Positions 21,676 through 50,857 of a stretch of DNA of 64,000 nt are shown here, piece after piece. Positions within the stretch are counted from its first letter, which is position 1. The number at the start of each line of letters is the position of its first letter. Below the pieces are notes generated by a model that searched no databases, was not told the DNA's origin, and saw only the letters and a program-made list of their open reading frames with translations. The position numbers and the translations under genes were made by a program. The stretch lies in assembly GCA_050747825.1 (NCBI GenBank), contig JBOGJG010000300.1, positions 17,479 to 81,478 on the forward strand, read 5' to 3'. This DNA is from Acidobacteriota bacterium (GTDB lineage Bacteria; Acidobacteriota; UBA6911; RPQK01; JBOGJG01).

Positions 21676-23346
21676 TTATTGCTCTGGATTCCGATTGAAC
21701 TTGAAGTAAGGCAGCCGTACGCCCCGTATAAAGATCTGGTCGGCCCGGATGGACGGGGTGGCCTCAAAACCTTCGGATCCGGCTGCGGCCACCACGTCGT
21801 CCTGCTCGACCCCGTCACCGCTGATCCCCAGTCCGCCGATTAGCTCTCTGTCTCTGTAAAGCGGCGCGCTTCCCGGGAAGAATACGACGCTATTGATGTT
21901 GGCAGGATTCTGATCGTCCAACCCCTGCGAGCAGGGATTGGCAAAATCGCGCAGATAGAGGTCAAAGAACGGTCCCGGCGCTGTGCCGTCAATTCCGGGA
22001 GGATAGAAGGGCTGCGCTCCGAAGCTGATGGTGCGATTAGTTACAGCAGTGCCCGGAGGGACTTCCGGCAAATCCTGGGGGTGGAGTCTCTGGCTGCTGA
22101 AATATACGACATTACGGGACTTGGCCACGGCGACATCGATACTGAAGACAGTCGCATCTGCCATCCGGTAGAGCGCTAAAAGATTTCCCTCCAGATCGGA
22201 GACCGCGATGGCCATCCGCGCCCGGCTGCCCAGTGGAAGGCGAATGGCGGCCCGAGTTCGGTCGGCCTGCGCGATGGACTGCTCGACAATGCGCTGGACT
22301 TCTTCAGCCGACAGTTCGGGACTGCTCCCTGGATTTTCCGGACCTCCCACCAGCCAGCCGGCGGGCATCGTACTTCCCTCTCGGGGCGCAACCAGATAGC
22401 CTCCCGCAATCACTCCGGCGGAGGTCCCTGCCGGTTGAGTGGTCTGGCGAACAAAAGGAAGACGGACGCCGTCCAGAAAGACGGCTCCGGGTGGCGGGAC
22501 GCAGGGAAGCGGTCCGAATCCCGGGCCGCCCGAGAGGCTTCCTGCCAGCGCGGCATACTCGGCGTGATCCGGGGGAACTCCAAAAACCCCGATGCCCCCG
22601 ACCACCTGACAATCTTTGAAGAGCGGAATACCCCCTCCGTGGACCTGCTCCGGTTTCAGATCGAAAAGCTCCTCTTCCGGGATCTCTATGAGACGGCCAT
22701 TTTCAAGTCGGCCCGAAAATTTTCCGGTGCTGACGCCCGGCCCGCAGCCGCTCTGATCGAACGCATCACAGGGAAGTTCAGGACCCTGTGCCAGTCCCTC
22801 CTCTCTCAAAAAGGCCGCCAGCGAGCGGGCTCGAGGTACGAATTTCCCGGTGTTGAATTCTGTATTGAAGGAGCAGCCTCGATTGGTATTTTCAATACCA
22901 TAGAGAGCTCCGTTGGGCTGAAAAGGGATTCCAGGGGGAAAGTGAATCTGGCTAATAAAGCGCACGGTTCGGGAAGAGAGGGGAGCTTGATTATTGCTGA
23001 AAAAGGCGCCCGTGCGGGCCAGTGAAAGCGCCCGCTCGGCTATCTCCAGCGTCGCCTCAGGTTTTTGCCAGACCGCCAGAACGTTTCCCGCCCGATCCAC
23101 GACCACGACTGAATAGGTATTGGAATCCAGAGCGGTCACTGCAGCGCTCACCACAGCATCTACCTGCGCGCTGGTTAATGAGCCTGGATCGAAGTCGGTT
23201 GCCTGCTCCAGCGTCTGTCTTCCCGGCAGCGAAGACCGGCGTTTGAGAAACTCGTAAAGCTTTGACACCTGCAGAGTGAAATCCTGAGCCAAGGTGGGCG
23301 CAGCAACCAGAATACAGAGAGCAAGGACAAGCGAAAGACGGCTCAC
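21676..23346 (-). CDS. Secreted protein with two tandem GlcG/HbpS-like (DUF336) domains
   Basis: Signal peptide. Repeat 1 is ...AQVDAVVSAAVTALDS..YSVVVVDRAGNVLAVW. Repeat 2 is ...EEVQRIVEQSIAQADRTRAA....MAIAVSDLEGNLLALY. Confidence 0.5.
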   Translation of the reverse strand: MSRLSLVLALCILVAAPTLAQDFTLQVSKLYEFLKRRSSLPGRQTLEQATDFDPGSLTSAQVDAVVSAAVTALDSNTYSVVVVDRAGNVLAVWQKPEATLEIAERALSLARTGAFFSNNQAPLSSRTVRFISQIHFPPGIPFQPNGALYGIENTNRGCSFNTEFNTGKFVPRARSLAAFLREEGLAQGPELPCDAFDQSGCGPGVSTGKFSGRLENGRLIEIPEEELFDLKPEQVHGGGIPLFKDCQVVGGIGVFGVPPDHAEYAALAGSLSGGPGFGPLPCVPPPGAVFLDGVRLPFVRQTTQPAGTSAGVIAGGYLVAPREGSTMPAGWLVGGPENPGSSPELSAEEVQRIVEQSIAQADRTRAAIRLPLGSRARMAIAVSDLEGNLLALYRMADATVFSIDVAVAKSRNVVYFSSQRLHPQDLPEVPPGTAVTNRTISFGAQPFYPPGIDGTAPGPFFDLYLRDFANPCSQGLDDQNPANINSVVFFPGSAPLYRDRELIGGLGISGDGVEQDDVVAAAGSEGFEATPSIRADQIFIRGVRLPYFKFNRNPEQ

Positions 23347-23546: not shown

Positions 23547-23801
23547 ATGAATACGAATGTAAAGAGCAGCATTACATTGCCCGCAGACGATCTCCGCCGA
23601 GTCAAGCGCTTGAAGGAGCGCCTGCAGCTGAAGAGCAACGTGGCTGTGGTTCGTGAGGGACTCCGAGTGCTGGAGGAAAAGAGCGACCGCGAGGCTTTAG
23701 GGCAAGAATTCCGCAAGGCCTCGTTGGCGACACGGCAGGCCCTGTTTGAAGAGCTGGAAGAGCTCGATCATCTCGCCAGTGAGGGGCTGAATTCCGCGTG
23801 A
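23547..23801 (+). CDS. Type II antitoxin (MazE/RHH-like) of the MazF pair
   Basis: 84 aa, overlapping the toxin by 4 bp. Confidence 0.55.
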   Translation: MNTNVKSSITLPADDLRRVKRLKERLQLKSNVAVVREGLRVLEEKSDREALGQEFRKASLATRQALFEELEELDHLASEGLNSA

Positions 23802-24139
23802 AGATAGAACACGGGCGCCTCTACCTGGCCGATCTTAATCCGCGCTTTGGAACGGAACCGGGAAAAATGCGGCTGGTCCTCGTGATTCAATCCGATCTTC
23901 TCAATGAAACAGGTCATCCCTCGACGTGGATTGTCCCCTGCACCACATGGCTCGCCGGTGGGAACGCACTGCGTGTGGTTCTCCCCAAAGGAATTGCGGC
24001 CAATGACAAGGAATGCGAGGTGATGGTCGATCAGAGCCGTGTCATCGACAATCGCCGAATCGGCAAGCCGCTTAGCTTCCTTCCAACTCTCCTCTTGTGC
24101 GAAGTTAAAGAGAAGATGCGGCGGGCAGGCGACCTCTAA
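23798..24139 (+). CDS. mazF: MazF/PemK-family endoribonuclease toxin
   Basis: GRLYLADLNP..G.E.GK.RLVLVIQSD...STWIVPCTT.... matches the PemK/MazF fold signature. Confidence 0.75.
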   Translation: MKIEHGRLYLADLNPRFGTEPGKMRLVLVIQSDLLNETGHPSTWIVPCTTWLAGGNALRVVLPKGIAANDKECEVMVDQSRVIDNRRIGKPLSFLPTLLLCEVKEKMRRAGDL

Positions 24140-24264: not shown

Positions 24265-24320
24265 TCTGTGAAATCCGTGGCCCATCTATGTTGGTGTATT
24301 TGTGAAATCGTGTGCTAAGT
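24265..24320. repeat. Family B repeat, partial copy (tgtgaaatccgtggccc) plus a degenerate direct repeat
   Basis: It matches the ccacggatttcacgg / ccgtgaaatccgtgg arms seen at 41346, 47128, 57074 and 61770. Confidence 0.4.
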
Positions 24321-26558
24321 TATTGGGCATTCATGCCAAAAGCTTTTCCTCCAGTCGGCCGAAATGCGGCTTTTCTCCTGTCCATGACCGCCTTATTGGC
24401 GCTTTTGGCCATGGATGCGCTGGGGGCGAGTTTTCAGATCCGCCGCCCTCCTCCCGCGCAGCCAGGGAATAGCGCCGAGATTCATGGGCTTGTAAGTGCC
24501 GAAGCGGGAACGCCGATTGCCGGTGCGGTCGTCACTGTAATGCATCAGGAGAGCGGAGAAAGGTCGGGAGTCGTCACCGGACCGGACGGCCTGTATTTGA
24601 TTGCAAGCCTTGCGCCGGGGATGTACGAGTTGACAGTCGAGCGTGAACCTTTCGGCTCAGCGTCACTCCCAGAGGTCGCATTGGAGGCAGGAGAGCGATT
24701 GGAGATCAATCTGCAACTAAAACCATCCGGTTCAGAGATTCTCCAGAGAAGACTGCGCCGGCCCGGTGAAGACGCTTCCCCGGCGGGAGAGCTGGAATCG
24801 GAGCTCCCGGAAGCTCCTGTCCCTTCACCGGCTATTCGCAGGCCTGGTGAACCGGCAGAGCCATCTCAAAGGCCGACCGATGCAGTCACGGCAAGACCAC
24901 CGGAATTCGAGCCGCTGGGGCATGCGGGAGCGGCCCATCAGACCTCGAATGTGCCCGCCACGGAAGATTTCATTCCCATCTCCGACCGCTGGCGAATAGG
25001 CCTGCCTCCATGGGATCGCTATGCCCCATATGGAGGAGATTATCCCTATGTCCGCGGAAGAACTCTGGATCCCTACAACCAGAACGTCCTGAAGGGCGAT
25101 TATCCGATCTTGGGCGATGACTGGTTCGTAGTATTATCTGCTACCAGCGACACCATTGCAGAATACCGGCGCGTGCCCACCGTGGGTCCTCCCAGCGCGG
25201 CCCGCCCCAACGAGCCGGCTTTCTTCAGCCGGGGCGACCAGTTTCAGTTTTTCGAAAACATCATTTTTACCGCCGAGCTGTTTCGAGGCTACACCTCCTT
25301 CAAGCCTTTTGACCTGCAGTTTCGCGTCACGCCGGCTTTTAGCGCCAATTTTCTGCAGGCCCGGGAAACGGGCCTCGTCAATATCGATGTTAGAAGAGGC
25401 ACCACGCGCTGGGATTACCACCCCGCGCTGCAGGAAGCGTTTGCAGAAATCCGGCTGGCTGAAACCAGCCCCTTCTTCGACTTCGTTTCCGTGAGGGTGG
25501 GAACCCAGTTCTTTAACAGCGATTTCCGCGGATTTATTTTCTTTGACAATCAGCCGGGGCTTCGTCTTTTCGGCAACCTCAAAGCCAACAAGCATCAGTA
25601 CAACCTTGGGTACTTCTATCTTCTCGAGAAGGACACCAACAGCCTGCTGAATAAATTCGAGGAACGGCGGCAGGAGGTTTTCGTCGCCAATTACTACATC
25701 CAGGACTTCGTAAAGCTCGGCTACACAACCGAATTCAGCGTGCATGTCAATCACGACAAGCCCGATTTTCACATGGACAACAACGGTTTCCTGGTCCGGC
25801 CGGCCCAGGTCGGAAACGTCGTCCCCAAGAGCGTGAACGCAGTTTACCTGGGGTGGAGCGGAGACGGCCACTTCCGCACCCTGAACATCAATCATGCTTT
25901 TTACCAGGTGCTCGGCCAGGAAAAGCCCAATCAAATCGCGGGCGATGTTTTCGGCCCCAGGGACACGGATATCAACGCGCACATGGTTGCCCTCGAGCTT
26001 TCCGTCGATCGGGATTGGAAGCGCTATAAGGGCTCGTTTTTTTATGCCTCGGGAGACGATAACATTTCGGATGGCCGCGCTCGCGGATTTGACACCATTG
26101 TGGACAATATGAACTTCGCGGGTGGGCCGCTGAGCCTGTGGAATCGGCAGAGCGTCCGGCTAACCGGAACCGCCGTTGGCCTGATGCCTCGATTCAGCCT
26201 TCTTCCCAGCCTGCGCAGCGCCAAAGAGGAAGGCCAGGCCAACTTTGTCAATCCGGGTTTGCTGCTCTTCAATGCGGGTATGGATGCAGAGCTGACTCCC
26301 AGGCTGAGGACCTCGATCAACGCCAATCTGATGTGGTTCTCTCACACGGAGGTGCTGGAGGCGCTGCTCTTTCAGTCCGAGATCGGGCGCTTTATAGGTA
26401 CGGACGTCAGTCTGGGAGCCAGATGGCGCCCCTTTCTAAATAACAACATTATTGTGAACCTGGGCGTGGCCGGACTGATCCCGGGAGGCGGTTTCAAGGA
26501 CGTTTATAGTTCTAAGGCGCTTTTATCGACGTTTCTGGATTTGAGATTGACGTACTGA
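24312..26558 (+). CDS. Secreted/outer-membrane protein: N-terminal carboxypeptidase-regulatory-like domain plus a large probable beta-barrel or beta-rich domain
   Basis: Signal peptide. ...GLVSAEAGTPIAGAVVTVMHQESGERSGVVTGPDGLYLIASLAPGMYELTVE is a CarboxypepD_reg-like domain. The rest has alternating amphipathic beta-strand-like segments rich in aromatics. Confidence 0.4.
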   Translation: MLSYWAFMPKAFPPVGRNAAFLLSMTALLALLAMDALGASFQIRRPPPAQPGNSAEIHGLVSAEAGTPIAGAVVTVMHQESGERSGVVTGPDGLYLIASLAPGMYELTVEREPFGSASLPEVALEAGERLEINLQLKPSGSEILQRRLRRPGEDASPAGELESELPEAPVPSPAIRRPGEPAEPSQRPTDAVTARPPEFEPLGHAGAAHQTSNVPATEDFIPISDRWRIGLPPWDRYAPYGGDYPYVRGRTLDPYNQNVLKGDYPILGDDWFVVLSATSDTIAEYRRVPTVGPPSAARPNEPAFFSRGDQFQFFENIIFTAELFRGYTSFKPFDLQFRVTPAFSANFLQARETGLVNIDVRRGTTRWDYHPALQEAFAEIRLAETSPFFDFVSVRVGTQFFNSDFRGFIFFDNQPGLRLFGNLKANKHQYNLGYFYLLEKDTNSLLNKFEERRQEVFVANYYIQDFVKLGYTTEFSVHVNHDKPDFHMDNNGFLVRPAQVGNVVPKSVNAVYLGWSGDGHFRTLNINHAFYQVLGQEKPNQIAGDVFGPRDTDINAHMVALELSVDRDWKRYKGSFFYASGDDNISDGRARGFDTIVDNMNFAGGPLSLWNRQSVRLTGTAVGLMPRFSLLPSLRSAKEEGQANFVNPGLLLFNAGMDAELTPRLRTSINANLMWFSHTEVLEALLFQSEIGRFIGTDVSLGARWRPFLNNNIIVNLGVAGLIPGGGFKDVYSSKALLSTFLDLRLTY

Positions 26559-26597: not shown

Positions 26598-29500
26598 ATG
26601 AGAAAAGTAGCAGCTTTGATGATGCTGACCTCGGCGGCAGTGCTGGCAGGGTTTTACCCCAGCGCCGAGCGACTCGAGGGAGAGTCCTGGACGGAGCAGC
26701 CGTATAAAACCTGGGATGAGATTCGCCAGCCTGTCGATGTGTCAAAAACGCTGCTTTCGCAGCCGCCCGAAGAGGCGCAGCGTAAGAGCGCCGGTTGTAT
26801 CTCCGCCGGCTGCCACACCAGTGTGGAGCCCATGCATGTTTCCGAAAGTGTGCGCCTGGGCTGCACCGACTGTCACGGTGGAAATGCGGATGCGATAGAA
26901 AAGGCCAGGGCGCACGTGCTCCCCACAAATACGGAAGTCTTCGGTTCCAGCGCCAATCCGGTCCGCGCTTACACGGCCTGGCTGCGTGAGAGTCCGGAGT
27001 TCGTACGTTTCGTGAATCCGGGAGACTTGAGAGTGCTGGATCAAACCTGTGGGACGGCCGGTTGTCATCAGGACATTTCCTTTAAGGTCCGTAAGAGCAT
27101 GATGACCCATGGAGGAATGCTCTGGGGCGCAGCACTTTATAACAATGGAGCCTACCCGCTCAAAGACACTCCTTTCGGCGAGAGTTATGCCATTGACGGG
27201 ACTCCTCAGCGCATCCAGACGATTCCCCCTCCGACTCCGCAGGAAACCCACGATCAGGGGATAATTCCTTATCTGGATCCCCTGGCCCAATGGGGGATCT
27301 CCCAACCCGGAAATGTACTGCGCGTCTTCGAACGAGGGGGCAAGGAATTGATCGAGATCGGGATTCCGGATATCGAGGCGGAGGCCGGTCTTCCGGATAA
27401 GGGACTGAGCATCCGCGGGTTCGGCACTTTAAATCGCACCGATCCTGTCGTTCTCGGGCTGCAGAAGACTCGGCTCATGGATCCGCTCCTGCATATGCCT
27501 GGGACGAACGACCATCCGGGAGATTACCGGGCCAGTGGCTGCACGGCCTGTCACGTGGTCTATGCCAACGATCGGTCGCCCGCCCATTCGGGACCCTATG
27601 CCCGGTTTGGAAACGGCGGGATGTCGGTGACATCCGATCCCACAATTCCCAGGGATGAAGCCGGGCACCCCATACGCCACCGGCTCACTCGCTCCATTCC
27701 CTCCAGTCAATGCATGGTTTGCCACATGCACCCGGGTACCAACATGCTGACCACCTATTTCGGTTACACGTGGTGGGACAATGAGACTGACGGCAATCAC
27801 ATGTATCCGGTGCACGAGAGGAACCTGTCCGCTGAAGAGATCGATCGAATCGAAAGGGCGAATCCCGAGGGTTCGGCCGTCAAAGGTCTTTGGTCTGACC
27901 CGGAGTTTCTCAAGAATCTGACTGACCTGAATCCCCGCCTCAAGCACGTTCAATTTGCCGACTTCCATGGCCACGGGTGGGTGTACCGGGCCGTTTTCAA
28001 GCGGGATCGAAAAGGCAATCTCCTGGACAGTGAAGGCCGGATCGTCTCCTTTGATGATCCCGGCAAGTTCGAGAAAGCCGTGCATCTGAAGGACATCCAT
28101 CTGGAAAAAGGCATGCACTGTGTGGATTGCCATTTCGAGCAGGATGTGCACGGCAGCGGCAAGCTTTACAATGAACCCAGAGCAGCCATTGAGATCGACT
28201 GCATCGACTGCCACGGCAGCATTTACGAGCGGGCCAGTCTAAAGACCAGCAGTTTTGCCGCGCCTCCGGGAGGTCACGATCTGAGCGTTCTTCGGACCCC
28301 CTGGGGACGCAAGCGCTTCGAGGTGCAGGCCGAGAAGATAATCCAGCGGTCCATGGTGGTCGAAGATCTGGAGTGGGAGATCGACCAGGTCCTGGATACG
28401 ATCTCGCCGCAATCGCCCTCCTACAATGAAAAATCCCGCCGGGCAAAAACGCTGCAAAAGGATGGAAAAACCTGGGGCGGCGCACTGGATGAAGATACTC
28501 TGGCCCATTCTAATTCCAGCATGACCTGCTACGCCTGCCATTCTTCCTGGATGACGAGTTGCTTTGGCTGCCATCTATCGATGCAGGCAAACAAGATGAA
28601 AACGATGCTGCACAATGAGGGGACGATCACACGCAACTGGACTTCCTACAATTATCAGGTGCTGCGCAGCGATGTTTTCATGCTGGGAGTGGATGGGACA
28701 GTATCTGCCCACCGGGTCGCTCCGGTACGGTCCAGCAGCGCGGTTGTGGTGAGCTCTCAAACGGGAAACAGAGAGTGGGTTTACCAGACCCAGCAGACCG
28801 TGTCCGCCGAAGGATACAGCGGTCAGGCATTCTCGACACACGTCCCTCACACCGTCCGCAGCAGGGAAACCAAGGGCTGCACCGACTGTCATGTGTCCAC
28901 AGAGAACGACAATAACGCCATCATGGCTCAGCTTCTGCTCCTGGGGACTAACTACACCAATTTTATGGGGCGCTATGTCTACGTGGGAGAAAGAGAGAAC
29001 GGTTTCGAAGCAGTAGCTATTGCCGAGCGGGAGGAACCCCAGGCGGTCATCGGCAGCTACCTGCACCGATTAGCTTACCCGAGCAAGTATGAAAAGCACG
29101 AAGAGGCGCATCACGAGCTGAAAGAGGCTTATCATCACCACGGGAAGGATATTTTGAGCGTGCAGCTTCGGGGCGAATATCTATACACGGCCAACGGACC
29201 GGAAGGGCTGGAGATTTTCGACGTGGCCCAGATTGATCACAAAGGCTTTTCCGAGCGGATGGTCACCGCTCCAGTCTCCCCCCTGGGACAGCGCTTCTAC
29301 GTTCGAAGCAAATACGCGACGGCCGTGGCTTCGCCTTCTACTCTGGCAGTCGATCCCGCGCGCACCCAGCGGCCTGAAAACGACGAGCAGGCGATCGCTC
29401 CGATTTATGCTTATATTTTCTTCACCGATAAGTATGAAGGATTGATCCTGGTCAATGCGGCCACGCTTCTGGATGGAGATCCCACCAACAACTTTCTGGA

Positions 29501-30278
29501 GCGGGCGCTCACCTACAATCCTGATGGACTTCTGGATGGAGCCGTCAATCTGGCCATTGCCGGAAATCACGTTTATGTGACATGCGACCGCGGCCTGGTG
29601 ATTCTCAATTTCAAGGATCCACTGAAGCCGACCATTACGTCGGTCATTGGAGAGCCTTTCATCAAGAAACCCCGGTCGGTCGCGATTCAGTTCCGTTACG
29701 CCTTCCTAGCCGATTCCGAGGGCATCAAGGTCGTCGATGTGACCCTACCCGAAAAATCGCATCCAGTAGAAACAGGAAAATTCTTGCTCGAGGATGCGCG
29801 CGACATCTATATCGCCAGAACATACGCTTATATTGCAGCGGGCAAGCAGGGCCTGGTCATCCTGGACGTCGAACGTCCCGAATTTCCGCGCCACTTTCTG
29901 ACCTATAACGCTGAAGGCGAAATAAACGACGCCTGGCAGGTGAAGCTTGCCATGAGCAACGCCAGCTCGTTCGCTTATATCGCAGACGGCAAGAACGGGC
30001 TGCGCGTCCTTCAAATAACCTCACCGGAAAAAACCCCAGGGTTATTTGGCTACAGTCCGGAGCCCTCCCCGGAACTCATCGCCACCTATCACACTCATGG
30101 CCCCGCGGTGGCGGTAGCGAAGGGATTAGACCGCGATCGAGCCGTGGACGAGAGCGGAAACCAAATAGCGGTGTTTGGCCGGCGCGGCGCCCGCCCCTTC
30201 AACTTCCAGGAAATGCAGCGGCTGTATCTAAAGCAGGGCAAGGTCTACCAGGTAACAGATGAACTGCCCAGGAAATAG
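26598..30278 (+). CDS. Large multihaem c-type cytochrome (8 CxxCH plus 2 CxxxxCH motifs) fused to a C-terminal LVIVD-repeat beta-propeller
   Basis: Signal peptide. The motifs are CISAGCH, CTDCH, CGTAGCH, CTACH, CMVCH, CVDCH, CIDCH, CYACH, CFGCH and CTDCH. The C-terminal 450 aa carry repeated GL.I.DV / GLVIL.. motifs (LVIVD repeats). Confidence 0.8.
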   Translation: MRKVAALMMLTSAAVLAGFYPSAERLEGESWTEQPYKTWDEIRQPVDVSKTLLSQPPEEAQRKSAGCISAGCHTSVEPMHVSESVRLGCTDCHGGNADAIEKARAHVLPTNTEVFGSSANPVRAYTAWLRESPEFVRFVNPGDLRVLDQTCGTAGCHQDISFKVRKSMMTHGGMLWGAALYNNGAYPLKDTPFGESYAIDGTPQRIQTIPPPTPQETHDQGIIPYLDPLAQWGISQPGNVLRVFERGGKELIEIGIPDIEAEAGLPDKGLSIRGFGTLNRTDPVVLGLQKTRLMDPLLHMPGTNDHPGDYRASGCTACHVVYANDRSPAHSGPYARFGNGGMSVTSDPTIPRDEAGHPIRHRLTRSIPSSQCMVCHMHPGTNMLTTYFGYTWWDNETDGNHMYPVHERNLSAEEIDRIERANPEGSAVKGLWSDPEFLKNLTDLNPRLKHVQFADFHGHGWVYRAVFKRDRKGNLLDSEGRIVSFDDPGKFEKAVHLKDIHLEKGMHCVDCHFEQDVHGSGKLYNEPRAAIEIDCIDCHGSIYERASLKTSSFAAPPGGHDLSVLRTPWGRKRFEVQAEKIIQRSMVVEDLEWEIDQVLDTISPQSPSYNEKSRRAKTLQKDGKTWGGALDEDTLAHSNSSMTCYACHSSWMTSCFGCHLSMQANKMKTMLHNEGTITRNWTSYNYQVLRSDVFMLGVDGTVSAHRVAPVRSSSAVVVSSQTGNREWVYQTQQTVSAEGYSGQAFSTHVPHTVRSRETKGCTDCHVSTENDNNAIMAQLLLLGTNYTNFMGRYVYVGERENGFEAVAIAEREEPQAVIGSYLHRLAYPSKYEKHEEAHHELKEAYHHHGKDILSVQLRGEYLYTANGPEGLEIFDVAQIDHKGFSERMVTAPVSPLGQRFYVRSKYATAVASPSTLAVDPARTQRPENDEQAIAPIYAYIFFTDKYEGLILVNAATLLDGDPTNNFLERALTYNPDGLLDGAVNLAIAGNHVYVTCDRGLVILNFKDPLKPTITSVIGEPFIKKPRSVAIQFRYAFLADSEGIKVVDVTLPEKSHPVETGKFLLEDARDIYIARTYAYIAAGKQGLVILDVERPEFPRHFLTYNAEGEINDAWQVKLAMSNASSFAYIADGKNGLRVLQITSPEKTPGLFGYSPEPSPELIATYHTHGPAVAVAKGLDRDRAVDESGNQIAVFGRRGARPFNFQEMQRLYLKQGKVYQVTDELPRK

Positions 30279-30321: not shown

Positions 30322-31596
30322 CTACAAGACTTGCTGGATTTTGGCGAGTTGGGTGGCGAATTCGGAAGGGCTGTAACGTGAGGTGGATTGGAGCCACTCA
30401 TAGAGACGCGCGATTTGGGCGTCCAATAGTTCGTTTGTCTTTCCGGTGTTCTCTCTCCAGGACCTGAAAAGAGCATCCACACTCATGGTCGCCTGCTCGG
30501 CTGAGCGGATTCCTGATTGTGCGATGTTCTGGGCGTCGCCTGAAATGGCTCTCATGATCTGAAGCGCCATCGGCTCACCCAGGTTTGCGGCCTGCCATTG
30601 TGAGATCAGCGAATCCGTCAGATCGGCAAGCTGACGGGCCGTGCGGGCGATCTGGAGCCGGTTATCCGCCGGCTGCTGGAGGTGCTGTTTCAAGTTTTCC
30701 ACGAGCTGTTCCAACTGTTGTCTTTGTCCGCCCGAAATGGCGGTTACCGCATGGCGAAAGACGATATAGCGCGAAGGATTCCAGGGTGGGATTCCAGCGA
30801 TGCCCTTATACCCTCGGGCCTGCCGTTCGCTGGGAAGGACGAGGTTATGGTGGCAGGCGAAACATTCGAAATCCGCAAAATCAGGCCAACCCGCCCAGGA
30901 GGGCTGTTCCACTCGATGGGCCAACTGCTCCATGGACTCTCGCAGCGACACGGCCTGGCCGATGGCCCAGCGACGCAGGCCCTGCCAATCTCCTTCAGGC
31001 TCGTCCCAGTGACGGGGCATCAGGGCGCTAAACGTGTCCAACTCAAAGACCAGGTCGGGATGGCCTGCCGCAATCAGTTGGTGATTGACCGTTTTCTCCT
31101 GGTTTCCCAGGTGGCAGGACAGGCAGGTATCGGCGCGCACATCGAAATCTCTAGTGTCGTTCATTCCGGCACTGAGCGACTGCTGATGCGTCCAGTCGCG
31201 AGTGGTATGAGGTCCCAGCCATTGGGAGGCGGGTCCGTGACAACTTTCACAACCGACTCCGTCGGAAATCTCAAAGGTGCGCGCCTGGCGCTGCTGCGGC
31301 GCATTAGTGGTATGGCAGTCCAGGCACAGTGTTGCCGTGTGCGGCTCAGAAATTCCCAAGTTGCGAGCGATCTGCTGGGAGCGGGGCTCCAACAGCACTG
31401 CATAAGCTTTTGCATGCCCATCCTTAGTGGACCAGATTTGGTATTCGTTCTGCTTGATCCGGCCGCCGGTTCTGGGCCACACGCTTCCATGGCAATTACT
31501 GGAGGCGCAGGATCCTGCCCCGGTGAAATTCACCTGGTCCTGAGGAGATAAAAGAAGAAATCCGGCCAGCGCGATGGGAAGCAGCATTACCGCCAT
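30322..31596 (-). CDS. Multihaem c-type cytochrome (4 CxxCH plus 1 CxxxxCH)
   Basis: The motifs are CASSNCH, CLDCH, CESCH, CLSCH and CFACH, with a signal peptide. Confidence 0.8.
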   Translation of the reverse strand: MAVMLLPIALAGFLLLSPQDQVNFTGAGSCASSNCHGSVWPRTGGRIKQNEYQIWSTKDGHAKAYAVLLEPRSQQIARNLGISEPHTATLCLDCHTTNAPQQRQARTFEISDGVGCESCHGPASQWLGPHTTRDWTHQQSLSAGMNDTRDFDVRADTCLSCHLGNQEKTVNHQLIAAGHPDLVFELDTFSALMPRHWDEPEGDWQGLRRWAIGQAVSLRESMEQLAHRVEQPSWAGWPDFADFECFACHHNLVLPSERQARGYKGIAGIPPWNPSRYIVFRHAVTAISGGQRQQLEQLVENLKQHLQQPADNRLQIARTARQLADLTDSLISQWQAANLGEPMALQIMRAISGDAQNIAQSGIRSAEQATMSVDALFRSWRENTGKTNELLDAQIARLYEWLQSTSRYSPSEFATQLAKIQQVL

Positions 31597-31730: not shown

Positions 31731-33404
31731 ATGATCATTCACGAACTACGGACGATTCAGGATCAGTTTGGCTACCTGCCGCGAGAGGAGCTAAAGAGGC
31801 TTTCTCAGAAGATCAATGTGCCGCTGTATGAGCTTCATGGAGTGGCCAGTTTCTTTCCCCACTTCCGGCTGGTGCGCCCGCCTGCAGTGGACATCGGCGT
31901 CTGCATGGATATGCCCTGCCATCTCCATGGCTGCGCTGGTCTGAAGAAGCAGATCGATCAAGCGGCGCAGGAAAGCAAACTTGACGTGGAGGTGCGGCCG
32001 GTCTCCTGTCTGGGACAGTGCGACCGGGCACCGGCCGTAGCTGTAAACGATCATATTTTTGCGCATCAATCCCCTCGGGAGACGCTGGCGGTTGTGACCG
32101 CTGCTTTGAAGGGCGCCAAGCTGGAGCATCAATCCTTTGGGGGGGGCGCCAGGCGCCATGCAGCCGATCCATACGACGGCGAGGGCGCGTACGGAGTAGT
32201 CAAAGATCTTCTCCAGTCGCAGGATTTCGAAGGCGTGCTGGAAAAGCTGAAATCGGCCAATCTAAGAGGGATGGGCGGAGCGGGCTTCCCTACCGGAGTG
32301 AAATGGGAGCTGGTTCGGAAGGCTGAGGGCGATGAGAAATATGTGGTCTGTAATGCCGACGAGAGTGAAGTTGGGACCATCAAAGATCGCGAGATCATGA
32401 AGGATCTTCCCCACCTTCTGGTCGAAGGGATGATCATCGCTGGACTGGTCACGGGCGCTCGCAAGGGCATCATCTATATCCGTCACGAATATCATGAGCA
32501 GGAAGAAGTACTGCGGGAGGAAATCATTCGAGCCAGGCACGCCCGTCTCGTGGGAGATGGACTCCTGGGCTCGAACCACACCTTCCATCTGGAAATTTTC
32601 GTCAGTCCGGGTGGCTACATCTGCGGCGAGGAAAGCGCTCTCTTGGAAGCCCTTGAGGGAAAGCGGGCCCAGCCGCGCAATAAGCCTCCTTTTCCGGTCA
32701 CTCAGGGCCTTTGGAACAAGCCCACTGTCATTAATAACGTTGAGACGTTCATTTATGTGCCACTGATCCTGAAAAGAGGCCCGGAATGGTTCCAATCCAG
32801 AGGGCGGAACGGGATTCCCGGGCTCAAGTTTGTGGGCGTCAGCGGCCACGTGAACAATCCGGGCGTCTTCGAGGTTGCGATGGGGACGCCTATTTCTGAA
32901 GTGATTTACGACCATGCCGGAGGAATCAGCCAGGGGAGGCGGATGAAAGCCTTTGCCCCTTCCGGGGCTTCCTCGGGTTTTCTCCCCGCCTCCATGGCGG
33001 ATGTCCCCATGGATTTCCAGAGCCTGGCTAAAGCCGGTTCAATGATGGGTTCGGGGGCGATAGTAGTGGCTGCTGAAGGGACCTGCCTTCTGGATCTGGC
33101 GCTAAATGCCGTCCGCTTCTTTCGCAACGAATCATGCGGAAAGTGTGTTCCCTGCCGGGTGGGCTCGCAAAAGCTGGTTGACATTCTCTTCCGGATCTCT
33201 CAGGAAGGCGGCACAAGAGAAGACCTTGAGGTGATTGAGCGTATGGCCGATACCCTGATGATGACTTCGATTTGTGGTCTGGGTCAGGTGGTCCCCAAGC
33301 CGATTACTTCCGTTATCCAGCATTTCCCCGGGGAAATCGAAGATCACATTGTAAATCAGACGTGCCCTTCGGGAGTGTGTTTTAGCGAGAGGAAAACAGG
33401 GTGA
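31731..33404 (+). CDS. NAD(H)-binding flavoprotein: fused NuoE-like [2Fe-2S] thioredoxin-like domain plus NuoF/HoxF-like FMN and [4Fe-4S] subunit
   Basis: The N-terminus has a C...C....C...C 2Fe-2S pattern (CMDMPC...CLGQC). GMGGAGFPTGVKW is the NADH-binding loop. ...ESCGKCVPCRVG is the N3 cluster. Confidence 0.85.
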   Translation: MIIHELRTIQDQFGYLPREELKRLSQKINVPLYELHGVASFFPHFRLVRPPAVDIGVCMDMPCHLHGCAGLKKQIDQAAQESKLDVEVRPVSCLGQCDRAPAVAVNDHIFAHQSPRETLAVVTAALKGAKLEHQSFGGGARRHAADPYDGEGAYGVVKDLLQSQDFEGVLEKLKSANLRGMGGAGFPTGVKWELVRKAEGDEKYVVCNADESEVGTIKDREIMKDLPHLLVEGMIIAGLVTGARKGIIYIRHEYHEQEEVLREEIIRARHARLVGDGLLGSNHTFHLEIFVSPGGYICGEESALLEALEGKRAQPRNKPPFPVTQGLWNKPTVINNVETFIYVPLILKRGPEWFQSRGRNGIPGLKFVGVSGHVNNPGVFEVAMGTPISEVIYDHAGGISQGRRMKAFAPSGASSGFLPASMADVPMDFQSLAKAGSMMGSGAIVVAAEGTCLLDLALNAVRFFRNESCGKCVPCRVGSQKLVDILFRISQEGGTREDLEVIERMADTLMMTSICGLGQVVPKPITSVIQHFPGEIEDHIVNQTCPSGVCFSERKTG

Positions 33405-35575
33405 GCGACGCAGGGAAGATCAATCTGACCATCGACGGAGTGCAGGTCAGCGCCAGCCCCGGCGCCACGATTTGGGAAGCCGCTCGCTCTGCCGGAATCG
33501 AAATCCCTGTTCTTTGCCACCAGTCCAATCTCGATCCCGTGGGTGTTTGCCGGGTGTGCGCGGTCGAAGTCCAGGGAGCCCGGGTTTATGCAGCCGCCTG
33601 CGTGCGCGCTGTCGAAAACGGGATGGTCGTCTCTACCGGTAATGCGCGATTGGAACAGTCCAGAAAAACGCTGATCGAGCTGCTGCTGTCAGACCATCCG
33701 GCTCCCTGTGCCCGCCACCAGAAATTCGGCGATTGCGAGTTGGAAGTCCTGGCCGAAAAGACTGGGGTCACTCAGCCCGCTTTTAACTCGCGGACGGCAT
33801 CCAAAGGGGCTGACGTTTCCAACCTCAGTATCTCCGTTGACCACAGCGCCTGCATCGTTTGCGATCGCTGTGTGCGGGCTTGCACGGACCTTAAGCACAA
33901 CAATGTAATCGGCCGTATGGGCAAGGGATATCTCACCAGCATTTCCTTTGATGATGACCGGCCTATGGGGGAGTCGAGCTGCGTCAATTGTGGAGAATGC
34001 ATGGTTTCCTGTCCCACCGGAGCGCTGACGTCCGGTGAAATGGTGGGGACCAGAATGGATTCCGGCGATGTGCTCAGTCCCGAAGATCTCTTGCGCTATC
34101 CCATCTTTGCGGGTATCTCCAGCGCATTTCTGGCACGAAATACCGGAGGCATAGTCAGGCGCCATTATCGAAAAGGCGAAATCATCTGCCGCGAAGGAGA
34201 ATACGGGTCCACGGCGTTTTATATCCTGCAGGGCCAGGTGGATGTTTTTCTGGGCACCAGTGTCGCCCACGTCGCCAAGCGAAGAGATTCCGGCATGGGT
34301 TGGTTCAAGAAGATGACCAGCGTACTGGTGTCCCGTACGGAAGATCCGCGGAGCGGCGAAAAGAGACAGAGCTATATTCCTATTGACGCTCCGGTTGATC
34401 TTTCCTACGATCGGCCGGTCGCGCAACTGGGCGAGGGCGACCTGTTCGGGGAGATGACCTGTCTGAACTTCTATCCCCGATCGGCGACGGTGCGCGCTGC
34501 TGAAGACTGCATCGTCCTCGAGATGCTGCGCAACGTCCTTCAGATCCTCCAGAAAAACCGCGATTTCCAGGCCCATATGGAAGAGGTCTACAGGAAGCGC
34601 GCCCTGGATAATCACCTGCGCAGCGTTCCCATCTTTCAAAACCTCCCGTCGGATTTTCTGGAATATCTAAGAGATCGCGTACAACTGAAGCGGTTTGAGG
34701 CAGGAGAGGTCATCTGCCGGCAGGGAGAGCCGGCGGATGCCTTCTATCTGGTGCGGATTGGGCACGTGAAGGTTTCTCAAGCTCGCCCTGGAGGTGAAAT
34801 GGTCCTGGCTTACCTGGCTAAGGGCCTGTACTTTGGCGAGATTGGTCTTCTGGCGAGAGGCGAGAGGACGGCCACCTGCACGGCGCTCGATCACGTGGAG
34901 GTTGTAAAAATCTCGCAGCGGGAATTCGACCAGATGCTGTCGCAATTTCCGGATATTCAGACCGAGCTCCAAAGAGTGGCCGGCCAGCGCCTGGAGTCCA
35001 ATGAAAAGCAGAGCGAAATGCTGAAGACGGTACCGCTGGATGATTTCCTGTCCCAGGGTTTGATGCAAGCTCAGAATCTCCTTGTTCTGGACCTGGAGAG
35101 TTGCGTGCGCTGTGATGATTGCGTGCGCGCCTGTGGCGCCGCTCACGACGGGTTTACCCGCCTGGTTCGCGAGGGCCTTCGCTTCGATAAATACCTGGTG
35201 GCTACATCCTGCCGGCAATGTAGAGATCCGCTCTGCATGGTCGGTTGTCCGGTGGGAAGCATACGGCGCCAGGATTCTCTGGAAATCATCATCGAGGATT
35301 GGTGTATCGGATGCGGCTTGTGCGCGCAGCAATGCCCTTACGGGAATATCAACCTGCATGAGTTTCCGGTCCGCGAGAGGAACCCGGAAACGGGAGCGTT
35401 CGAAACCGTTCTTAAGAAGAAGGCCACAGTCTGTGACCTTTGCACCGATCACAAGGAGCCAAGCTGCGTCTACGCCTGCCCGCACAATGCGGCTCATCGT
35501 GTAGACCCCCGGACATTCTTCGATCTGCAGCTCCAGCCGACCGGCTTGGCTTCTAAGGAGCCGAGCTCATCGTGA
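33401..35575 (+). CDS. HoxU/NuoG-N-terminal-like Fe-S protein with two inserted cNMP-binding domains and a C-terminal 2x[4Fe-4S] ferredoxin module
   Basis: The N-terminal 215 aa have a 2Fe-2S motif (CHQ...CRVCAVEV), then HP..C...C (His-ligated cluster), then CIVCDRCVRAC and CVNCGECMVSCP. Two cNMP domains follow: ...GEIICREGEYGSTAFYILQG...FGEM....RSATVRA and ...GEVICRQGEPADAFYLVRIG...FGEIGLL...RTATCTA. The C-terminal Cys motifs are CVRCDDCVRAC, CRQCRDPLCMVGCP, CIGCGLCAQQCP and CDLCTD....CVYACP. Confidence 0.8.
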   Translation: MSDAGKINLTIDGVQVSASPGATIWEAARSAGIEIPVLCHQSNLDPVGVCRVCAVEVQGARVYAAACVRAVENGMVVSTGNARLEQSRKTLIELLLSDHPAPCARHQKFGDCELEVLAEKTGVTQPAFNSRTASKGADVSNLSISVDHSACIVCDRCVRACTDLKHNNVIGRMGKGYLTSISFDDDRPMGESSCVNCGECMVSCPTGALTSGEMVGTRMDSGDVLSPEDLLRYPIFAGISSAFLARNTGGIVRRHYRKGEIICREGEYGSTAFYILQGQVDVFLGTSVAHVAKRRDSGMGWFKKMTSVLVSRTEDPRSGEKRQSYIPIDAPVDLSYDRPVAQLGEGDLFGEMTCLNFYPRSATVRAAEDCIVLEMLRNVLQILQKNRDFQAHMEEVYRKRALDNHLRSVPIFQNLPSDFLEYLRDRVQLKRFEAGEVICRQGEPADAFYLVRIGHVKVSQARPGGEMVLAYLAKGLYFGEIGLLARGERTATCTALDHVEVVKISQREFDQMLSQFPDIQTELQRVAGQRLESNEKQSEMLKTVPLDDFLSQGLMQAQNLLVLDLESCVRCDDCVRACGAAHDGFTRLVREGLRFDKYLVATSCRQCRDPLCMVGCPVGSIRRQDSLEIIIEDWCIGCGLCAQQCPYGNINLHEFPVRERNPETGAFETVLKKKATVCDLCTDHKEPSCVYACPHNAAHRVDPRTFFDLQLQPTGLASKEPSSS

Positions 35576-36483
35576 TTATCGATCGAAGCAATAAGCCCTG
35601 GATCGTGGCCAGCATCGTCATTTTCCTGGTTTCGGCAGTACTCTACATCCCTTACAGCATCTACGCCATCCCGGCGCCTTCGGGCGGAAGCTGGCCTGGC
35701 TTGATTTACGCCTTTCTCGGCACAGGCATGATGCTCTTTGCGCTGCTGCTGGGTTTACGGAAAAAGTACCCAACTCTGCGAGTGGGAAGGCTGCACGCCT
35801 GGATGAAAGGACATGTCTGGCTTGGACTCTTGAGCTTTCCCATTATTCTCTTTCACGCGGGATTTGCTCTGGGCGGGCCGCTCACGACGGTGTTAATGGT
35901 TTTGTTCGGTATCGTCGTTTTCAGCGGCCTCTTCGGGATCGTTCTTCAGCAGTATATTCCTGGTCTGATGACAGAGCAGATTTCGATGGAAACGATTTTC
36001 GAGCAGGTGGATGACATTCTGGCTCAGCTCCGCCAGGAAGCGGATGCATTCGTGCAGGCCGCCTTATCGCGCGAATCCGAAGAGCCTTTTGTCATGGAGG
36101 CACTGGGAGGAGGGACCGAGTCTCCACTGGCGCGCAACCGCTACTCGAGTGATCAGTCGGAACTGAGCAGAGGCCGGCGCGTCTTGGACGACTTTTATCA
36201 GCGTGAAGTCCGGCCGTTTCTTCACGATCAGGCCGGACCGGACAGCCGATTCGCCTCCGAGCAGAAGTCCAACGTTGTCTTTGAACAGATGCGAAAAGTG
36301 CTCCCCGGCTCGTTTCACGAAACACTGGCCTCTCTGGCCGATATCGTGGAAGAGAGACGGCAACTGGCGCGCCAGGTGAAGCTGCATTATCTTCTTCACG
36401 GCTGGCTCTTCATACACGTCCCCCTGTCTATGGCGCTGATGGGGCTGGCGGCAGTTCATGCGGTCATAGCACTCAGGTACTGA
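35572..36483 (+). CDS. Integral membrane protein (about 5 TM) with conserved His in TM helices; candidate b-type haem membrane anchor
   Basis: Hydrophobic helices. His residues in helices include GHVWLGLL, ILFHAGF and HYLLHGWLFIHVP. 4-bp overlaps on both sides (operon). Confidence 0.45.
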   Translation: MIIDRSNKPWIVASIVIFLVSAVLYIPYSIYAIPAPSGGSWPGLIYAFLGTGMMLFALLLGLRKKYPTLRVGRLHAWMKGHVWLGLLSFPIILFHAGFALGGPLTTVLMVLFGIVVFSGLFGIVLQQYIPGLMTEQISMETIFEQVDDILAQLRQEADAFVQAALSRESEEPFVMEALGGGTESPLARNRYSSDQSELSRGRRVLDDFYQREVRPFLHDQAGPDSRFASEQKSNVVFEQMRKVLPGSFHETLASLADIVEERRQLARQVKLHYLLHGWLFIHVPLSMALMGLAAVHAVIALRY

Positions 36484-36487
36484 GCAG

Positions 36488-37831
36488 ATGGCGCGAAAGG
36501 GAAAAACCACCAAGCAGCTTGCCAAGCGCATCGACATCAACTACTTCAAGCGGCTGCACCCGTTTCGCCGGAAAAAGCGGTATGCAAGCTATGTGGCCCT
36601 GGCACTAGCTGCGGCGTGGCTCATCGCAAGCGCTCTGGTGGGGGACGAAGGCGTTTTCAATCCCGGACCTGTCTCACGCCCCCACGCCTTTATTGAGGAA
36701 GACTGCTCCTTTTGCCATACCGGAGCCGAGGAGAACCGCTTTCTTCACCCCGTTACCGATGGGGCCTGCCAGAGCTGCCATGCCGGCCCGCTTCATCACC
36801 GCAATCAGGTCTTTGCCGGACATACGGGAAGCCAGCCCTCCTGCGGCAGTTGTCACCAGGAACATCAGGGACGCTCGGCTGACCTGGTTTTTATGCAGGA
36901 CAAGAACTGCCTGCAGTGCCACCGTTCCCTCCAGGTGGACGAGACACTCGTTGCTGCATCCAGTCCGGATTTGCCTGAATTCCTGGCGCGGCCTCCGCAA
37001 GGTTACGCCCGGGCCATCTCCAGCTTCGAGAGTGATCACCCGGAATTCCGTTTCATTCGCGACCAGATGGAAGATCCTGCGCAGATTAAGCTCAATCACC
37101 AGGTGCACCTGAGGCCGGACCTGCCCGCTCCCGAAGGTCCGGTTCAACTCGAATGCCAGTCGTGCCATAGAATCGATGCTCAGGGGGCTTATATGGAGCC
37201 GGTCAATTTCGAACGGGACTGCCAGTCCTGTCATCCCCTGGCTTTTGACGAACGGATTTTTGAAGAAGCGCCACATGAGGACCCTGAATTTGCGGAGGCT
37301 TTTGTCCGCACGGCTTTTTCCAAGTACGCCGGTGAGCATCCTGATGAATGGCGCCGGCCCTCGGACTGGCATCCGGCGCGCAATCTCTCCAGCCTCAGAA
37401 GAATGGTCGAAGAGGCTCCTCGAGATCTCCCGGACTGGCTGGAAAGAGAAGTTGGGAAGGCGCGCCAGCTCCTGTTTTCCCAAAAATGCCAGGAGTGCCA
37501 CGTCATGCAGGACCTGCAGCAGGAGGTCCCTGCAGTTGTCCAGCCTCGCATTCCAGATCGATTCCTCGGCCACAGCCGTTTTGATCACCAGGCACATCGA
37601 ATGCTCGAGTGTTCGTCCTGCCACGAACAGGCGCTTCAAAGCAGTCGAACCGAAGACATTCTCATTCCCGGCCGGGAGGACTGCCTGCACTGCCACAACA
37701 CTTCCACTGGAGCCCCGGCTGAGTGTGTAACTTGTCACGCTTATCACTCACAGACCAAAAATTACCAGCCAGGACGTCTCAGGATCAACGATATCGTCGG
37801 TGGGTCACAGCAAGGAGAATCACGTGAATGA
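36488..37831 (+). CDS. Membrane-anchored decahaem c-type cytochrome
   Basis: One N-terminal TM helix. Ten CxxCH motifs (CSFCH, CQSCH, CGSCH, CLQCH, CQSCH, CQSCH, CQECH, CSSCH, CLHCH, CVTCH). Confidence 0.8.
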   Translation: MARKGKTTKQLAKRIDINYFKRLHPFRRKKRYASYVALALAAAWLIASALVGDEGVFNPGPVSRPHAFIEEDCSFCHTGAEENRFLHPVTDGACQSCHAGPLHHRNQVFAGHTGSQPSCGSCHQEHQGRSADLVFMQDKNCLQCHRSLQVDETLVAASSPDLPEFLARPPQGYARAISSFESDHPEFRFIRDQMEDPAQIKLNHQVHLRPDLPAPEGPVQLECQSCHRIDAQGAYMEPVNFERDCQSCHPLAFDERIFEEAPHEDPEFAEAFVRTAFSKYAGEHPDEWRRPSDWHPARNLSSLRRMVEEAPRDLPDWLEREVGKARQLLFSQKCQECHVMQDLQQEVPAVVQPRIPDRFLGHSRFDHQAHRMLECSSCHEQALQSSRTEDILIPGREDCLHCHNTSTGAPAECVTCHAYHSQTKNYQPGRLRINDIVGGSQQGESRE

Positions 37832-50570: not shown

Positions 50571-50857
50571 AATGTTACCTCTTCCTCATGAAAGGTGTTC
50601 CAAGCAAAAATTTAAACGATTGTAAAGCCGCTGATTTTAAGCAAAAACTGCACCTGTCGCTGGATTTGGCGAAGACTCGGAGGGCAGCCAGACGCTTAAA
50701 TTGTTCCAATTAAATGGATTAACAATCCAAAAAATATTTCACAGCTTCGAAAATAAGGAGTTGATAGTTCCCGGTATGTCCAAATAATTGGACAATTAAG
50801 GGTCTTGGTTCCAGCTTTTTGGACTTGGAGAGCATGAGAGGTGATTAGCGAGAATGG

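Follow-up and report, generated by a model that had tools for sequence, protein, structure and literature searches.

A decahaem cytochrome fused to an LVIVD β-propeller and its outer-membrane barrel partner: a widespread gene pair in Acidobacteriota with a possible role in electron export

Acidobacteriota dominate soils and peat, and to our knowledge little is understood of how they handle electrons under oxygen limitation. We analysed a 64,000-nucleotide stretch of DNA from an Acidobacteriota bacterium (GenBank assembly GCA_050747825.1, contig JBOGJG010000300.1, positions 17,479 to 81,478 of the forward strand; the whole stretch is called the window, and coordinates are counted from its first letter). 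The subject is a gene for a multihaem cytochrome fused to a β-propeller, together with the gene directly upstream of it, which encodes an outer-membrane protein. The features of this gene pair are as follows.

24333..26558, + strand: outer-membrane partner protein (signal peptide, CarboxypepD_reg β-sandwich, Pro-rich linker, 18-strand barrel)
26598..30278, + strand: decahaem c-type cytochrome fused to an LVIVD β-propeller (ATG start, 1226 residues)
26775..28907, + strand: haem domain, residues ~60-770 (from motif positions)
26796-26816 and 27048-27068, + strand: CX4CH haem motifs (from motif positions)
26862-26876, 27540-27554, 27711-27725 and 28119-28133, + strand: CxxCH haem motifs (from motif positions)
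28200-28214, 28527-28541, 28560-28574 and 28878-28892, + strand: CxxCH haem motifs (from motif positions)
28968..30125, + strand: LVIVD β-propeller of ~7 blades, residues ~791-1176 (Pfam LVIVD, AlphaFold2, Foldseek)
30126..30275, + strand: C-terminal tail, residues ~1177-1226 (invariant alignment columns; predicted local distance difference test score, pLDDT, below 50)

The open reading frame at 26598-30278, with 1226 codons for residues that include eight CxxCH and two CX4CH motifs, had been called from the letters of the sequence, and our open reading frame and motif scan bore this out. The CxxCH motifs were located at residues 89, 315, 372, 508, 535, 644, 655 and 761 (n = 8) and the CX4CH motifs at residues 67 (CISAGCH) and 151 (CGTAGCH). 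The original prediction placed all of them in the N-terminal 750 residues; this holds for nine of the ten, and the last one, at 761-765, falls slightly past that limit. Haem motifs account for 20 of the 21 cysteines, and in 20000 shuffles of the protein such motifs numbered 0.027 on average and never more than 2. The N-terminus (MRKVAALMMLTSAAVLAGFYPSA) has the appearance of a Sec-type signal peptide without a lipobox, and a lipobox cysteine is absent from all cytochromes encoded in the window. The haem region has one haem per ~71 residues, a spacing more typical of multihaem enzymes than of wire proteins such as MtrA.

Ten of ten haem sites were kept in an alignment of 50 homologues (61-74% identity). 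The third site (CGTxGCH) is of the CX4CH type in all members aligned, and the first is CX4CH only in the near clade of 26598-30278 and CX2CH in other clades. This toggling indicates that a two-residue insertion in the haem loop is tolerated. Judged from the alignment, the haem sites are real and under selection. Twelve more histidines are invariant within the haem region, and two others, H834 and H847, precede the propeller; together these would be sufficient for bis-His ligation of all ten haems, and a five-coordinate haem among the ten is possible. H834 and H847 belong to a His-rich helix (YLHRLAYPSKYEKHEEAHHELKEAYHHHG, residues 821-848, nt 29058-29141) between the haem domain and the propeller, which could contribute distal ligands to the haems or create a metal-binding site.

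Sequence and profile searches of the PDB with the 1226-residue protein gave nothing better than a generic NrfB haem pair (E = 0.03), and no MtrA/DmsE or MtrC family match was found in Pfam or NCBIfam. Of the named families, ExtM (NCBIfam NF040943) alone matched the haem domain significantly by sequence (E = 6e-24). Membership in that family was rejected, because the match scored 84 bits against a cut-off of 800 and thus reflects distant homology only. The cytochrome and a neighbouring pentahaem protein (see below) both start with a CX4CH motif; homology between their N-termini was considered and is unsupported by the BLASTP match obtained (E = 0.002 over 35 residues). We found no description of a decahaem-LVIVD family in the searchable literature.

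The C-terminal part had been proposed to be an LVIVD propeller of seven or more repeats, and this was upheld. Pfam LVIVD (PF08309) matched the whole protein with E = 1.2e-18 (66.6 bits against a gathering cut-off of 20.2) and the C-terminal 432 residues with E = 4e-20 in 5 repeat stretches. The six LVIVD-like strings quoted in the prediction were placed at residues 870, 948, 999, 1042, 1085 and 1134. AlphaFold2 modelled residues ~791-1176 as all-β with a pLDDT of about 90, and the strand pattern, read off the secondary-structure string and not from coordinates, comprises six four-stranded LVIVD blades plus one probable closing blade, about 7 in all. Foldseek returned generic propeller matches, namely AztD (a zinc chaperone), YWTD and WD40 proteins, with E down to 6e-9; cd1 nitrite reductase was a further generic match at rank 35. 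The propeller fold is confirmed by the model, but it carries no functional label. The tail that follows (LDRDRAVDESGNQ...FGRRGARPF) is highly conserved, with invariant columns in the family alignment and a pLDDT below 50 (model residues 1152-1200). Its conservation makes it a candidate interaction segment.

The protein upstream, first delimited as 24312-26558, had been suggested to be an outer-membrane barrel. An AlphaFold2 model with 18 long strands (pLDDT 77) and an aromatic C-terminal residue, the outer-membrane β-signal, in 75 of 75 homologues agree with that suggestion. The gene start is uncertain and is probably ATG 24333 or ATG 24384, not GTG 24312. The protein has a signal peptide, no cysteine and the C-terminal end ...LRLTY, and its CarboxypepD_reg domain (Pfam E = 9e-17) is followed by a disordered Pro-rich linker. 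A 70-residue loop between strands 13 and 14, predicted to be extracellular, is highly conserved, and 11 arginines are invariant in the family. AlgE, the alginate exporter, was the first Foldseek match to the barrel (E = 5e-13, target TM score 0.64), followed by OccD/OprD and general porins; neither MtrB nor a TonB-dependent receptor was present in the top 50. Weak matches to Pfam Alginate_exp (PF13372) were obtained for 11 of 51 barrel family members (best E = 3e-5), with no match for 24333-26558 itself. Identity as a TonB-dependent receptor was rejected, since the protein matches neither OMP_b-brl_4 nor TonB_dep_Rec and has 18 strands versus 22 with a plug. Two TonB-type receptors elsewhere in the window scored OMP_b-brl_4 with E = 1e-202, unlike this barrel. 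These are tandem proteins of ~1130 residues with CarboxypepD_reg and OMP_b-brl_4 domains (47202-50585 and 50983-54444, both on the − strand), typical of Acidobacteriota.

Both families are large. A search over 5.8 billion proteins, in which 8000 candidates were scored for the 1226-residue protein, was saturated: the full-length relatives formed at least 7994 clusters at 90% identity among the 8000 scored, and the whole family is put at more than 8000. The best 120 were 60-74% identical, and the source names of family members were all 'hypothetical' or spurious labels. At 50% identity the full-length members collapsed into only about fifteen clusters, the most distant at 42% identity; the cytochrome family is thus abundant but tight. 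A scan with one genome per species placed relatives in at least 576 species. The best 80 genome matches were all metagenome-assembled genomes, mainly of Acidobacteriota and Rokubacteria/Methylomirabilia, and no cultured carrier was found among them; the Acidobacteriota in this set belonged to Terriglobia, Bryobacterales, Acidoferrales, Blastocatellia, Pyrinomonadaceae and Vicinamibacterales. The barrel family comprised more than 3500 clusters, many of them on contigs shared with the cytochrome family, and about 60% identity was kept across classes for the gene pair.

The proteins of the window were compared with 83 independent related loci (individual loci are given as L numbers), and barrel adjacency was scored in the 71 that had enough upstream sequence. 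In 71 of 71 the barrel gene was immediately 5′ of the cytochrome gene and co-oriented with it. The barrel gene was also adjacent in L087, where the cytochrome homologue is ~40% identical, and in L001 the two coding regions abut at position 10001. The upstream gene of L086 encodes a PKD-domain protein cut by the contig end. Seven loci of Blastocatellia type (L034, L037, L051, L072, L074, L082 and L083) encode a barrel without CarboxypepD_reg that carries a tetrahaem cytochrome c3 domain instead. The order in these fusions is signal peptide, class III tetrahaem domain, linker and a barrel 43-47% identical to 24333-26558, with Pfam Cytochrom_CIII matches above the cut-off (E = 5e-8 to 4e-10). A separate pentahaem gene was not detected in any of the seven. 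Among 76 barrel proteins, the N-terminal domain was CarboxypepD_reg in 42 and tetrahaem in 7, with none detected by BLAST in 27; by this comparison the N-terminal domain is variable and the barrel constant. The fusions indicate that the barrel is physically tied to an electron-transfer assembly. Taken across the loci, the barrel and decahaem-propeller genes are one inseparable two-gene unit. The earlier idea that the barrel could be the partner of the cytochrome is thus supported, by the adjacency and the seven fusions, more strongly than could be known from the window.

Three loci of Blastocatellia type (L051, L083 and L034; for example L083:11971-14443) carry a small 4-5-haem cytochrome gene directly 3′ of the decahaem-propeller gene, and also one or two genes for compact cytochromes of ~300 residues with 8-9 haems, at ~33 residues per haem, an MtrA-like density. 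Both kinds of gene are absent from the window's own locus.

Around the gene pair, the window encodes further proteins of electron transfer and haem handling.

17583..19001, + strand: SthA, soluble NAD(P)+ transhydrogenase (NCBIfam PRK05249, 553 bits against a cut-off of 465)
21676..23346, − strand: exported double HbpS-like protein (DUF336, a haem-binding/degrading family), 556 residues (Pfam E = 2e-26 in 2 stretches; signal peptide)
30322..31596, − strand: exported pentahaem cytochrome, Cytochrome_C554-like (Pfam E = 3e-13; signal peptide; 4 CxxCH plus CASSNCH)
31731..33404, + strand: cytoplasmic NuoE-NuoF fusion-like flavoprotein (Pfam; NCBIfam nuoF_fam E = 5e-139)
33401..35575, + strand: cytoplasmic iron-sulphur (FeS) protein with cyclic-nucleotide-binding domains (Pfam)
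35572..36483, + strand: five-helix membrane protein, 303 residues, putative ferric-reductase-type dihaem cytochrome b (invariant His pairs)
36488..37831, + strand: membrane-anchored decahaem cytochrome with an N-terminal transmembrane helix and 10 CxxCH (from motifs)

Neighbours were counted over the 49 loci with full 10-kb flanks; these counts are lower bounds, as several matches lay at the flank limit. The flavoprotein, the FeS protein, the membrane protein and the anchored decahaem and pentahaem cytochromes are taken together as an electron-input set; 37 of the 49 loci carried one or more of its genes at no more than 10 kb from the cytochrome gene, and 27 carried the pentahaem gene there. 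The first motif of the pentahaem protein, CASSNCH (CX4CH), was kept in 30 of 30 homologues, and ten motifs were present in 31 of 35 homologues of the anchored decahaem cytochrome. The NuoEF-like flavoprotein consists of 2Fe-2S, FMN/NADH-binding and 4Fe-4S modules. The FeS protein begins with a cluster module of the NuoG/HydA type and continues with three cyclic-nucleotide-binding domains and, at the C-terminus, 4Fe-4S diclusters; its PDB matches were restricted to the N-terminal 210 residues. Two or three cyclic-nucleotide-binding domains stand between the cluster modules in this protein and its counterparts (L051:16274-18679 and L086:7928-9448); cyclic-nucleotide gating of an electron-transfer protein is unusual. 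The input genes are 3′ of the cytochrome gene and on the same strand in L086, L051, L083 and L034. The sthA gene was within 10 kb in 23 of the 49 loci and the HbpS-like gene in 43, which makes the latter the third most conserved neighbour. Clustering of all flank open reading frames gave no further conserved large neighbour beyond those named, and short conserved flank clusters were taken to be antisense open reading frames inside conserved genes.

The membrane protein has two pairs of histidines, H81/H95 and H282/H296, without exception among 36 homologues. The two members of a pair share a helix and are spaced by 14 residues, a pattern that marks transmembrane dihaem b proteins. H272 and H276 are invariant as well, and a cytoplasmic insert of ~140 residues lies between helices 4 and 5. 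Its family comprises 873 clusters, all hypothetical. A distant homologue in L086 came just under the threshold of Pfam Ferric_reduct (PF01794), with E = 3e-6 and 27.6 bits against a cut-off of 28. We regard the family, from its histidine pattern, as probably an undescribed branch of ferric-reductase-type dihaem b proteins. In the NOX, FRE and MsrQ proteins, too, two helices each bear a His pair with 14-residue spacing, and the donor is cytoplasmic and pyridine-nucleotide-linked. They differ in that the donor here is an FeS protein with cyclic-nucleotide-binding domains, not a fused FAD/NADPH domain, and the acceptor a multihaem cytochrome; moreover, 35572-36483 itself has no Pfam match and no PDB relative in sequence and profile searches. 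The cyclic-nucleotide-binding/Fer4 part and the membrane domain form a single open reading frame of 802 residues in L051, which supports the view that the two act together.

The donor varies between lineages. In L087 and L051 the place of the NuoEF-like protein is taken by a flavoprotein in which Pyr_redox is joined to FHA, multihaem and Fer4 domains. By this comparison the NAD(P)H-oxidising module is replaceable, and the core of FeS protein, membrane protein and cytochrome stays. The proteins concerned (L087:4278-8168 and L051:18793-21939, a class of ~970-1300 residues), whose genes adjoin distant relatives of the cytochrome gene, contain, by Pfam, one or more FHA domains, a multihaem c segment, a 4Fe-4S dicluster and Pyr_redox; those at L083:17331-20498 and L034:18957-21860 are of similar size, with an FHA-like N-terminus and 8 CxxCH. 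Cytoplasmic and periplasmic modules are mixed in these proteins, implying a membrane-spanning topology.

We compared this module with known systems. MtrB has 26 strands and the Geobacter porins are predicted to have about 20, and cytochromes of the MtrA/DmsE/OmaB type have ~30-35 residues per haem. The locus resembles the Mtr and porin-cytochrome (Pcc) systems in that a barrel gene stands beside a decahaem cytochrome gene, more periplasmic multihaem cytochromes are encoded nearby and the path would lead outward. It differs in its 18-strand, AlgE-like barrel with no MtrB match, in a cytochrome of 1226 residues that carries a folded propeller and has ~71 residues per haem, in encoding no extracellular lipoprotein cytochrome of the MtrC/OmcB type in the window, and in an input made of a flavo-FeS protein and a dihaem b rather than CymA, ImcH or CbcL. 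The proposed analogy to a porin-cytochrome conduit is supported in part: it holds for the adjacent, co-oriented genes and gains from the tetrahaem-barrel fusions, but it fails on the AlgE-like barrel, the haem-poor cytochrome and the missing lipoprotein cytochrome. The system lacks three of four defining features of Mtr/Pcc (barrel, compact cytochrome, lipoprotein cytochrome) and is not to be filed there.

Cyc2 has one haem and a smaller barrel, and works alone in Fe(II) oxidation. Like Cyc2, seven of the related loci have a c-type cytochrome domain and an outer-membrane barrel in one polypeptide. The fusion here, however, is a tetrahaem c3 domain on a long linker, always with a decahaem-propeller gene, and the window's own barrel is haem-free (0 Cys).

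The EET1 system of peat Acidobacteriota has an MtrB-like porin, a separate 6-bladed NHL/DUF5128 propeller and a 13-haem OmcE-like cytochrome; it was described by Fiorito et al. in a preprint, in silico and from metatranscriptomes, and extracellular electron transfer was proposed for it (bioRxiv 10.64898/2026.05.27.727921). The two systems share a phylum and a conserved synteny of barrel gene, propeller 'scaffold' and multihaem cytochrome. Identity was rejected on account of those EET1 components: the propeller here is LVIVD and fused to a decahaem domain that has no relative by sequence in the PDB, and its barrel partner has 18 strands and resembles AlgE. LVIVD, NADH and cyclic nucleotides are unmentioned in the EET1 preprint (bioRxiv 10.64898/2026.05.27.727921). 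In two further cases, both in clusters linked to extracellular electron transfer, exported propellers occur beside multihaem cytochromes: Desulfovibrio ferrophilus IS5 (DFE_0451/0452/0463; PMC8322314) and, with propellers of NHL type, the Tenderiales uet cluster (bioRxiv 10.1101/2022.05.06.490989). As here, these are exported 6-7-bladed propellers without an assigned role; there, however, the propellers are separate proteins, and the phyla and partner barrels differ. ExtM (GSU2935, 12 haems) belongs to the extHIJKLMNOPQS cluster of Geobacter sulfurreducens, which includes a dedicated porin-like protein, ExtI (PMC5877670). ExtM, in contrast, has no propeller, and the cluster around it relies on a cytochrome b together with a Rieske protein. 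The module is best seen as a real and very widespread variant of the outer-membrane cytochrome-barrel electron-transfer systems with an unusual input side.

We favour, tentatively, the reading that the gene pair is the distal module of a possibly quinone-independent electron-export chain leading from cytoplasmic NAD(P)H toward the cell surface; we hold this to be quite possible and stop short of calling it probable. It builds on the haem motifs and their conservation, the barrel and propeller folds, the synteny, the two kinds of fusion and the histidine pattern. The NuoEF-like flavoprotein would oxidise cytoplasmic NAD(P)H, with SthA balancing NADH against NADPH. The FeS protein, under the control of its cyclic-nucleotide-binding domains, would take over the electrons, and the ferric-reductase-type membrane protein would pass them over the inner membrane by way of its two b-haems. 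Transport through the periplasm would fall to the anchored decahaem cytochrome and the pentahaem cytochrome, or to the barrel-tethered tetrahaem domain where one is present. On the periplasmic side of the outer membrane, the 1226-residue protein and the barrel would form a complex, the last station of the chain, in which the ten haems, if occupied, pass electrons to the barrel. The propeller and the conserved tail may act as a docking or substrate-binding surface that holds the cytochrome at the barrel, and the AlgE-like barrel would be the point of contact for an acceptor that stays outside the cell or enters solely through the pore. For the acceptor itself, chelates of Fe(III) or Mn, humic quinones and oxyanions are candidates.

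Two alternatives are conceivable for the last step: a haem may reach into the pore, as in Cyc2, or a small acceptor may enter it. The size of the barrel, its AlgE-like fold and the conserved loop favour the pore, and the fusion of cytochrome and barrel speaks for direct participation. Outward flow is favoured because electrons move in that direction through ferric-reductase-domain proteins, because the membrane potential would assist it and because the inputs are NAD(P)H-linked. A stronger version, in which the complete pathway from NAD(P)H to the cytochrome/propeller-barrel unit is cyclic-nucleotide-gated, independent of quinones and widespread in Acidobacteriota and Methylomirabilota, appears doubtful to us.

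Several observations weigh against export. The haem spacing of the 1226-residue protein is enzyme-like rather than wire-like, and its haem region was modelled mostly with pLDDT below 50 (AlphaFold2 without haems, on the shallow alignment of 50 sequences at 61-74% identity). The AlgE-like barrel, with its 18 strands and a long conserved loop, leaves little room for a cytochrome inside, and it has no MtrB-like match. Neither a lipoprotein cytochrome nor an evidently surface-exposed one is encoded in the window. The anchored decahaem cytochrome has the layout of the NapC/NrfH quinol dehydrogenases, a transmembrane helix followed by haems, and a weak NrfH match, so quinol input is conceivable. Twelve of the 49 loci have no input-module gene inside 10 kb. 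Lastly, many host lineages are aerobes, in which electron export is not obviously called for.

Some of the same observations would suit a periplasmic multihaem enzyme, in which the propeller or a five-coordinate haem is catalytic for a small soluble substrate, for instance an N-, S-, Se- or Te-oxyanion, the barrel is an anion-selective import or export pore and no electrons cross the outer membrane. In fold the barrel is closer to AlgE, OccD and specific porins than to MtrB, its 11 invariant arginines and conserved 70-residue loop are as expected of a constriction loop, and the haem density of the cytochrome is that of enzymes. The propeller and tail contain many invariant Arg, Asp and Glu residues beyond the repeat motif, and enzymes that combine haem c with a propeller are known, cd1 nitrite reductase among them (the generic Foldseek match noted above). 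The haem domain is also distantly related to ExtM, whose Geobacter cluster is a selenite/tellurite cluster with the porin ExtI (PMC5877670). However, the tetrahaem tether on the barrel in seven loci is hard to square with a pure solute pore, a known catalytic signature was not found in the 1226-residue protein in Pfam, NCBIfam or PDB, and the best structural matches of the propeller (AztD, YWTD, WD40) are non-catalytic. We consider an enzyme of this kind unlikely, if well worth keeping in view.

The chain could also run inward, with a donor that is extracellular or passes the pore, such as Fe(II), Mn(II) or reduced humics, oxidised as by Cyc2 or MtoAB and the electrons delivered to the respiratory chain or uphill to NAD(P)+. 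Fusion of cytochrome and porin characterises the Fe(II) oxidisers of the Cyc2 type and is seen in the related loci too, many carrier lineages are aerobic soil bacteria, and NuoEF-type modules are, as is established, reversible in principle. Inward flow through a dihaem b would nevertheless oppose the membrane potential, genes for an oxidase, a cupredoxin or bc1 are absent among the conserved neighbours, and SthA together with the varied NAD(P)H-flavoprotein inputs suits NAD(P)H oxidation better. Electron uptake is therefore improbable. An assimilatory or protective reductase, which would reduce Fe(III) chelates for uptake or detoxify periplasmic oxidants with the HbpS-like protein handling haem or iron, is more improbable still: the ferric-reductase-like membrane protein, the exported HbpS-like protein in 43 of 49 loci, an NAD(P)H path that would conserve no energy and a catalase gene adjoining the module in L003 are in keeping with it, but ~35 haems over four cytochromes are a heavy investment for assimilation, iron uptake normally proceeds via TonB-dependent receptors, from which the barrel differs (the two typical ones lie elsewhere in the window), and neither a Fur box nor iron-transport genes were seen among the conserved neighbours.

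If electron export by an outer-membrane complex fed from NAD(P)H is correct, the module is a concrete and testable candidate for the route by which soil Acidobacteriota reduce Fe(III) and humic matter. In the stronger, quinone-independent version, reducing power would be dumped on external Fe(III) or humic matter and the quinone pool bypassed. The known parts of extracellular electron transfer would gain three: a barrel partner of AlgE type, a fusion of cytochrome and propeller, and a cyclic-nucleotide-gated, ferric-reductase-type inner-membrane step. The tetrahaem-barrel and FeS-membrane-protein fusions hint at which proteins work together.

The remaining genes of the window are described briefly. 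The HbpS-like protein (21676-23346) has 7 Cys, and its gene is divergent from the barrel-cytochrome operon. The gap of ~1 kb between it and the barrel gene holds a type II toxin-antitoxin pair (23547-24139, + strand), in which an RHH-like antitoxin (23547-23801, weak Pfam match) overlaps a PemK/MazF toxin (23798-24139, E = 2e-18). The corresponding gap in L001, a close relative, is only ~185 bp, and the pair looks locally inserted. Downstream of sthA, an MBL-fold (metallo-β-lactamase) protein (19005-19838, + strand) shows similarity to cyclic-nucleotide phosphodiesterases in a weak NCBIfam match (E = 1.5e-13); an MBL-fold protein at L051:21962-22729 matches Pfam PDEase_II (E = 6e-13). An MscS channel with a cyclic-nucleotide-binding domain (19898-21388, − strand) makes up, with the MBL-fold phosphodiesterase-like protein, a cyclic-nucleotide theme. 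Conservation of this channel gene in the related loci was rejected, as the matches were cross-hits of its cyclic-nucleotide-binding domain onto the FeS protein gene. Further along the window (41422-46300, + strand), the gene for a TPR protein precedes those for two paralogous proteins with FG-GAP/ASPIC-UnbV repeats (42831-44630 and 44540-46300), all apparently unrelated to the cytochrome system.

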